A DNA stretch of 64,000 nucleotides from Escherichia coli. GTDB lineage: Bacteria; Pseudomonadota; Gammaproteobacteria; Enterobacterales; Enterobacteriaceae. This document shows positions 47,217-47,497 of this stretch, in pieces (positions within the stretch are counted from its first letter, which is position 1; every line of letters begins with the position of its first letter). The DNA is taken from the NCBI RefSeq assembly GCF_044324875.1, contig NZ_CP172185.1; one strand, written 5' to 3'. Under the pieces are notes generated by a model that had not been told where the DNA came from, ran no database searches, and saw only the letters and a program-made list of their open reading frames with translations. The translations under genes and the position numbers were made by a program.

Positions 47217-47497
47217 ATCAATAAACTGAGACCTTCACAGCATCACCCACCACCCACAGTGATATATAACAAAAAAGATACAATCACAGGCAAATACCAC
47301 GCTGAAAAACATTCAGCACAATTCAATTACGCCAGTGAGTAATCCGGTAACAGTATTACATACCTTCCTGCCAGAATCTCCACTCACATAAATTGTCAAA
47401 TAATTGCAAAAATTTACAATTAAAACGTATTGAAAATAATTTCTATTACCATTTAATAAAGTACTCCCTGATTACCTGATTAAGTGAGTCATCAAAC

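Follow-up and report, generated by a model that had tools for sequence, protein, structure and literature searches.

A probable Fur operator upstream of an island-borne fbpABC-type ferric importer operon in Escherichia coli

We propose that an fbpABC-type operon, carried on a genomic island of Escherichia coli, is controlled by classical Fur repression through promoter occlusion, with derepression under iron limitation, and we regard this as the likely explanation of what is found in the DNA upstream of it. The analysis covered 64,000 nucleotides of chromosome (the window), in which the segment at 47426-47456, within the spacer ahead of the operon, is probably a Fur operator acting by promoter occlusion. 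The computed support consists of the score of the site and its rarity, the 6-bp phasing of its registers, its overlap with promoter-like hexamers, the fact that orthologues keep it, and the membership of the gene product in a family of iron-binding proteins; actual binding by Fur, the start of transcription and repression itself are what we infer. A Fur operator had already been suggested at this place in a sequence-only reading, and that suggestion now gains support, at the level of sequence, from the matrix score, from its robustness to the choice of matrix and from the conservation of the box upstream of orthologous genes.

The window is a piece of E. coli chromosome with a genomic island adjoining a tRNA-Ser gene and ghrA. 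This stretch is rare, being present in just 11 of 5,426 complete E. coli genomes, and the carriers of the island operon are isolates from poultry and humans. Identity among the 11 E. coli copies is 99.9% or higher, so that within the species there is essentially no variation to examine. The island (approximately 32600-64000) is a mosaic: it also holds CbtA/YeeU-type toxin-antitoxin genes, a disrupted Ag43-type adhesin and IS66 copies, together with a 5-oxoprolinase/biotin-carboxylase cluster, PdxR and an aminotransferase, and lldD/lldP.

The operon comprises three genes on the plus strand. The first (47498-48547, with its ATG at 47498) encodes a periplasmic ferric-binding protein of FbpA type, of 349 amino acids; the second (48531-50219) encodes a fused two-domain ABC permease of FbpB type, of 562 amino acids with two BPD_transp_1 stretches; and the third (50235-50912) encodes a short form of FbpC-type ABC ATPase, of 225 amino acids with an ABC_tran domain. 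The permease gene has a TTG start and shares 17 nt with the 3′ end of the gene before it, so that the two may be translationally coupled. Many ATPases of FbpC/PotA type have a C-terminal domain of some 120 amino acids, which this ATPase lacks (the model for ferric ATPases has 351 positions). A truncated ATPase was considered and ruled out: the orthologous ATPases are likewise of 222-233 amino acids, and the short ATPase is therefore typical of the family. Orthologues have the same gene order of binding protein, fused permease and ATPase, and the TTG-start overlap and the short ATPase are also common to them.

On the 5′ side the operon is flanked by a hypothetical gene and by a short frame of 70 amino acids (47004-47216). 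This frame looks like the C-terminal part of a tyrosine recombinase/integrase (..AVNRIIKR..HGFHRTA..) and gave no Pfam hit; its recombinase-like character suggests that the transporter genes may have come in as a module of their own inside the island. With a hypothetical gene and an integrase-like frame as 5′ neighbours, the 47217-47497 spacer would therefore serve this operon alone. Among the neighbours checked at the locus no regulator gene adjoins the operon, and on the island nearby there is no siderophore or outer-membrane iron receptor gene next to the transporter.

Judged by its alignments, the product of the first gene is a class III ferric-binding protein of the B. pertussis/Mannheimia FbpA type. 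Its best solved relative is PDB 1Y9U (E = 5.5e-144 across residues 33-348, with about 70% identity as counted on the printed alignment), which we take to be FbpA, the ferric-binding protein of Bordetella pertussis; the second is Mannheimia FbpA, 1Q35 (E = 4.9e-82). There were 38 structure hits at E ≤ 10, and all 28 of those below E = 1e-14 are iron-binding proteins. The tyrosines at 1Q35 chain positions 142, 198 and 199 align with query tyrosines in the motifs hpYn and nsYYvg, and Tyr142, Tyr198 and Tyr199, in Mannheimia FbpA numbering, are presumably the iron ligands of class III ferric-binding proteins. Similarity over the full length, the three tyrosines, and the fused permease and the ATPase as partners are all as in the class III FbpA type.

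The gene had earlier been labelled afuA, and this label has to be corrected. AfuA of Actinobacillus pleuropneumoniae, from which the name comes and which together with its AfuBC partners belongs to the same periplasmic binding protein superfamily and has the same operon layout as the E. coli operon, reportedly binds sugar phosphates and not iron. Its structures, which we take to be PDB 4R72-4R75, are absent from the 38 hits, whereas the closest solved relatives are iron binders of FbpA type; an AfuA-like sugar-phosphate binder is thus ruled out, there being no detectable similarity to the AfuA structures even at E ≤ 10, and for the same reason the name is misleading for this gene. In some annotation schemes afuA is also a generic name for iron(III)-binding proteins. 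An FbpA-type iron binder makes iron control of the operon a reasonable expectation, so that the correction renders the regulatory proposal more plausible, not less.

The AT-rich candidate sequence pointed out earlier is present as tgaaaataatttctattacc, at 47431-47450, its coordinates having been one base off. The accompanying count of 12 of 19 matches to the Fur consensus GATAATGATAATCATTATC was correct (the reverse strand gives 13 of 19). Taken by itself, a 12/19 consensus match is no better than chance: among dinucleotide shuffles of 47380-47497 a match of 12/19 occurs in 38% and one of 13/19 in 10%, and the window holds 91 19-mers with a consensus match of at least 12/19. No 19-mer anywhere in the window lies within three mismatches of the Fur consensus, so a consensus search is too blunt a test here; the count is also misleading because the mismatches of the candidate sit at low-information positions. 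The match had on this basis been called weak, but by weight matrix it reaches 16.25 bits, the top of the window, and is strong.

The weight matrix is symmetric and 19 bp wide, and was iterated from the consensus on 21 intergenic regions of K-12 genes whose control by Fur is well established, each region contributing its best site (fepA-fes, fepD-entS, fepB-entC, fhuA, fiu, fhuE, cirA, exbB, feoA, ryhB, sodA, fecA, fecI, fhuF, yncD-yncE, sufA, nrdH, mntH, tonB, fur and nfeF). It returns that same consensus, with 16.45 bits of information, and the sites that it picked include familiar ones, e.g. those of tonB and fecA. In the PWM scan, which had been named beforehand as a check, the candidate GAAAATAATTTCTATTACC (47432-47450) scores 16.25 bits and ranks first of 63,982 window positions, in support of a Fur operator. 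Known K-12 Fur promoters, when scored leave-one-out, give 6.7-22.2 bits with a median of 15.7, and the candidate lies inside their range and above that median.

The 21-promoter matrix is consensus-seeded and assumes a uniform background, which favours AT-rich DNA, and it includes the fecA site, which resembles the candidate. With a matrix lacking fecA the candidate scores 15.3 bits, and against the local AT-rich background 12.3 bits. A matrix from the eight promoters that are on a published list of footprinted Fur sites (PMC2189734) gives 17.2 bits and rank 1; one from the seven listed promoters without fecA gives 14.2 bits and rank 4; and one from the 13 promoters outside the footprinted list gives 14.9 bits and rank 1. 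A matrix found without the consensus seed places 17.75 bits at 47429 and 15.51 bits at 47435 (ranks 2 and 4). Under the subset and unseeded matrices, then, the rank of the candidate is between 1 and 4.

The rival explanation that survives best is a chance match, in promoter DNA that is AT-rich and horizontally acquired, upstream of an operon that would be constitutive or otherwise controlled and on which Fur would not act. The core region is indeed of only 26% G+C; consensus counting yields P of 0.10-0.38, with the 91 comparable 19-mers in the window; and AT-rich parts of the window hold other high-scoring sites that lack an explanation, at 51589 (14.8 bits), 51277 (13.4 bits) and 8469 (20.3 bits, unseeded matrix). 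We nevertheless think chance improbable. The matrix score is exceeded in just 0.3-0.5% of composition-preserving shuffles: with 5000 dinucleotide shuffles each, the probability of a maximum of at least 16.25 bits is 0.0054 for the upstream region of 358 bp and 0.0026 for the core of 118 bp. Scores of at least 16.25 bits occur at just six positions in 701 kb of other loci, and four of the six are directly upstream of orthologous genes. The site is, moreover, located where iron control would be expected, and the orthologues in Fur-using lineages all have a counterpart of the site about as far from the start codon, though their flanks have diverged.

These orthologues come from a genome scan that returned 80 orthologous loci, of which the 32 closest were inspected for Fur-like sites. 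The genera among the 32 are Citrobacter, Buttiauxella, Cedecea, Enterobacter, Klebsiella, Providencia, Edwardsiella, Pusillimonas and Pelistega, and three metagenome-assembled genomes labelled Raoultella, Enterobacteriaceae and Aeromonadaceae are also included. Every one of the 32 has a site of 11.4-17.1 bits, which in 31 loci lies between -77 and -130 relative to the start codon and in Pelistega at -38; the site of the window is at -66. A second site 6 bp away is found in most of them. The two beta-proteobacterial (Alcaligenaceae) orthologues examined both have Fur-like boxes of 13.2 and 15.9 bits, and in further relatives with an E. coli-like full-length N-terminus, including Citrobacter amalonaticus, sites of 14.6-18.6 bits lie at -83 to -88.

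When the 200 bp upstream of each locus are scored with a minimum of 11 bits, a site is present at 38 of 38 gamma- and beta-proteobacterial loci and at 5 of the 41 others, most of which are alphaproteobacterial; the background rate is 1.45% of 2,960 segments of 200 bp. Many alphaproteobacteria use iron regulators other than Fur, and their loci therefore serve as a natural negative control. A literature search for Fur control of the operon in Edwardsiella returned nothing useful.

Conservation can be followed to single columns in an alignment (A1) of the upstream regions from 13 genera, which has a mean column identity of 46%. Its sole invariant or near-invariant upstream columns are those of TTGnAA, a -35-like hexamer, and ATTAnCATTTA, the core of the box. 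Within the TTGnAA hexamer, column T62 is invariant and A65 nearly so; further downstream CTATTACCATTTA is placed under TGATTATCATTTA, where the invariant columns correspond to 47446, 47447, 47451, 47454 and 47455, and the E. coli stretch TTGAAAATAATTTCTATTACCATTTA is aligned with TTGTAAGTGCTAGTGATTATCATTTA. At two near-invariant T positions of the orthologue core (47443 and 47449) the E. coli copy has C, and the strongest register in E. coli is displaced by 6 bp in the 5′ direction relative to theirs.

The same conservation bears on a second rival, according to which silencing of AT-rich foreign DNA by an H-NS-type nucleoid protein would be dominant, and the Fur-like sequence secondary or non-functional in E. 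coli. H-NS prefers AT-rich DNA, the DNA upstream of the operon is very AT-rich, and an island found in 11 of 5,426 complete genomes is the kind of setting to which this explanation would apply. However, silencing leaves unexplained why one 19-bp pattern and its register are kept across genera whose upstream composition differs, and silencing and Fur control are not mutually exclusive in any case. As an explanation that displaces Fur, we consider it more improbable than a chance match.

Returning to Fur repression by promoter occlusion, the anatomy of the site is that of a cluster. The main predicted box at 47432-47450 (16.25 bits) overlaps one Fur-like site 6 bp upstream (47426-47444, 9.68 bits) and another, weak, 6 bp downstream (47438-47456, 4.26 bits); in the orthologues the strongest box (..GATTATCATTTA) stands in line with this last register, at 47438. 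Fur site clusters are described as overlapping sites in 3- or 6-bp spacing (PMC2189734), and the registers at 47426, 47432 and 47438 match the 6-bp phasing of those clusters; the two registers picked by the unseeded matrix, 47429 and 47435, are likewise 6 bp apart.

Three candidate promoters, all on the plus strand, overlap or abut this cluster, though promoter matches of the kind are no commoner than chance: two such matches, P1 and P2 below, were found in the region, at the shuffle expectation of 2.2. The first candidate rests on the -35-like hexamer TTGAAA (47430-47435), which is conserved in orthologues as TTGTAA, TTGCAA or TTGAAA; a -10 to match it is poor in the window, being either TAATAA at 47454-47459 or TTTAAT at 47452-47457, as read from the sequence. 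The second, P1, is TTGTCA-16-TACAAT (47393-47420), with 10 of 12 consensus matches. A start about 7 nt past its -10 would fall at about 47427, and the Fur cluster would then cover approximately +1 to +30; in alignment A1 no conservation of P1 is seen in the orthologues. The third, P2, is TTTACA-16-AATAAT (47413-47440), likewise with 10 of 12 matches, and its -10 falls within the main box. The corresponding region of Edwardsiella is preceded by a terminator, and the sole promoter-like match there, TTGAAA-18-TACTAT, falls on the same A1 columns and encloses the box, an arrangement that points to a conserved promoter with a Fur box in its spacer. Rfam gave no known RNA element in 47000-47700, and a riboswitch-type leader is therefore not indicated.

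We envisage that with ample iron the 47432-47450 box, and with it the registers that overlap it at 6 bp on each side, would be occupied by dimers of Fe(II)-Fur. The occupied cluster would span the conserved TTGAAA through its presumed -10, would contain the -10 of P2, and would lie directly 3′ of the -10 of P1. RNA polymerase would thus be kept out or halted at any of the three promoters. Under iron scarcity the repressor would dissociate and allow transcription of the operon at 47498-50912.

A near-palindrome that had been noted beside the candidate is present as AATTGCAAAAATTTACAATT (aattgcaaaaatttacaatt), at 47402-47421, one to two bases away from where it had been placed; its significance was not borne out, as its 8 of 10 complementary pairs are equalled in 14% of shuffles (P = 0.14). 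The Fur-like 19-mer that overlaps it (47399-47417) has 6.87 bits, less than the 7.7 bits that the best position of a shuffle reaches on average, and the near-palindrome thus adds little to the case for a Fur operator. That it is instead the operator of a different, dedicated transcription factor is the weakest of the rivals and was rejected as very unlikely: its symmetric pairs and its overlap with the P1 spacer and -10 are set against the shuffle result, the want of a regulator gene beside the operon (the left neighbours being the integrase-like fragment and the hypothetical gene), the failure of its sequence to be conserved as such in the orthologues, and the absence, as read by eye, of a LacI/GalR-type central CG and of CRP TGTGA/TCACA arms.

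Other regulators were also considered for the candidate site and rejected. CRP and LacI-type motifs were compared with it by eye; for ArgR, judged in the same way, one ARG box agrees with the site at 11 of its 14 positions, and a second box at the required spacing is absent.

Several Citrobacter, Buttiauxella and Cedecea orthologues have a second palindromic Fur-like element, GTAAATGTGAATCATTTGC, of 9.2-14.7 bits. It lies at approximately -130 to -120 from the start codon (e.g. 3836-3854 of locus L015), some 35-39 bp upstream of the main box. The near-palindrome of the window, at a similar distance, may correspond to this distal GTAAATGTGAATCATTTGC element, alignment A1 being gapped and uncertain there.

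Among known systems, the E. coli fecA promoter, which is one of the footprinted Fur sites (PMC2189734), offers a close likeness. The best site in the fecA promoter region is identical to the candidate at 15 of 19 bases: in the fecA box, GAAAATAATTCTTATTTCG, the first ten bases, GAAAATAATT, are the same as in the candidate, whereas the 3′ halves are unlike (CTTATTTCG against TCTATTACC). The two score 14.45 bits (fecA) and 16.25 bits (candidate), each is mid-range with just 12/19 consensus matches, and each precedes an iron-uptake gene. Transcription of fecA also requires the FecI sigma factor; in this respect the systems differ, as a FecI-type sigma factor gene is not encoded beside the island operon.

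As regards the transporter itself, the FbpA of the B. pertussis fbpABC operon (taken to be 1Y9U) and the E. coli binding protein share about 70% identity along their full length. B. pertussis FbpABC is iron-repressed, according to a review (PMC8489951), and FbpABC takes up Fe3+ and ferrisiderophores (PMC8891985). Unlike the B. pertussis operon, the E. coli copy is on a genomic island beside tRNA-Ser, where a gene for a siderophore receptor is absent from the vicinity. The Fur-repressed operons of other pathogens, namely Neisseria fbpABC, Haemophilus hitABC, Serratia sfuABC and Yersinia yfuABC, follow the same logic of ferric-binding protein, permease and ATPase. Their binding proteins are detectable relatives of the one described here (E = 1e-15 to 1e-22), far weaker than the Bordetella and Mannheimia class; these operons are more distant subclasses, and the ATPase here is short, at about 225 amino acids.

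In one clade of related loci, represented by a sequencing-run assembly (L103), the operon shares its upstream intergenic region, which holds an 18.6-bit Fur box, with a divergent gene (1283-2176). This gene encodes siderophore-interacting-protein and FAD-binding domains of the ferric-siderophore reductase type, and it is another link of the transporter family to siderophore iron.

The window contains Fur-like sites elsewhere too. One group lies in an AT-rich gap of 808 bp between the ATPase gene and a convergent DUF1097 gene, in which there is no annotated feature and which is present only in the same 11 island-carrying genomes. Its sites are at 51277-51295 (13.4 bits), 51589 (14.8 bits) and 51595 (10.2 bits), the last two being 6 bp apart (51589-51613). 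Within the gap there could be a small gene or RNA under Fur control, the remnant of a gene, or nothing at all.

The chromosomal backbone has a further Fur-like cluster at 8466-8490, of 11.2 and 10.6 bits with the seeded matrix; with the unseeded matrix, 8469 reaches 20.3 bits and is the top hit in the window. Relative to K-12 this cluster maps just beyond solA. In published Fur ChIP-exo lists, taken for MG1655 and for the start of W3110 (PMC10164565), there is no peak near the equivalent of 8466-8490, and none near the backbone region in which the operon is found.

A Fur box before a ferric ABC importer is a textbook arrangement, and the candidate described here is a strain-specific addition to it. 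The strains of the ChIP-exo study are, we assume, unlikely to carry so rare an island.

Considering how the operon may have come under host control, a more elaborate history can be outlined, which we regard as doubtful. A few poultry and human lineages of E. coli would have recently acquired a Bordetella-type FbpABC, importing iron across the inner membrane and possibly supplied by siderophores, and the transporter would have been wired into the Fur regulon of its host by an operator remodelled since transfer, in which the strongest register has come to lie 6 bp upstream of the ancestral one and is now fecA-like. A second, weak distal site and P1, as an E. coli-specific promoter close to consensus, would then make up an arrangement of two promoters and two operators that is not seen in the orthologues.

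There is nothing here that would surprise a specialist, but the work holds a lesson of method, in that a consensus count of 12/19 made a good site seem weak, and the weight matrix and the orthologues made it clear. The correction of the gene label, from a sugar-phosphate binder of AfuA type to an iron binder of FbpA type, is a further outcome. If the operator is confirmed, one strain-specific target would be added to the Fur pan-regulon of E. coli, and a rare, island-borne ferric importer would be seen to be under normal iron control, which would bear on the iron acquisition of the poultry and human isolates that carry it.
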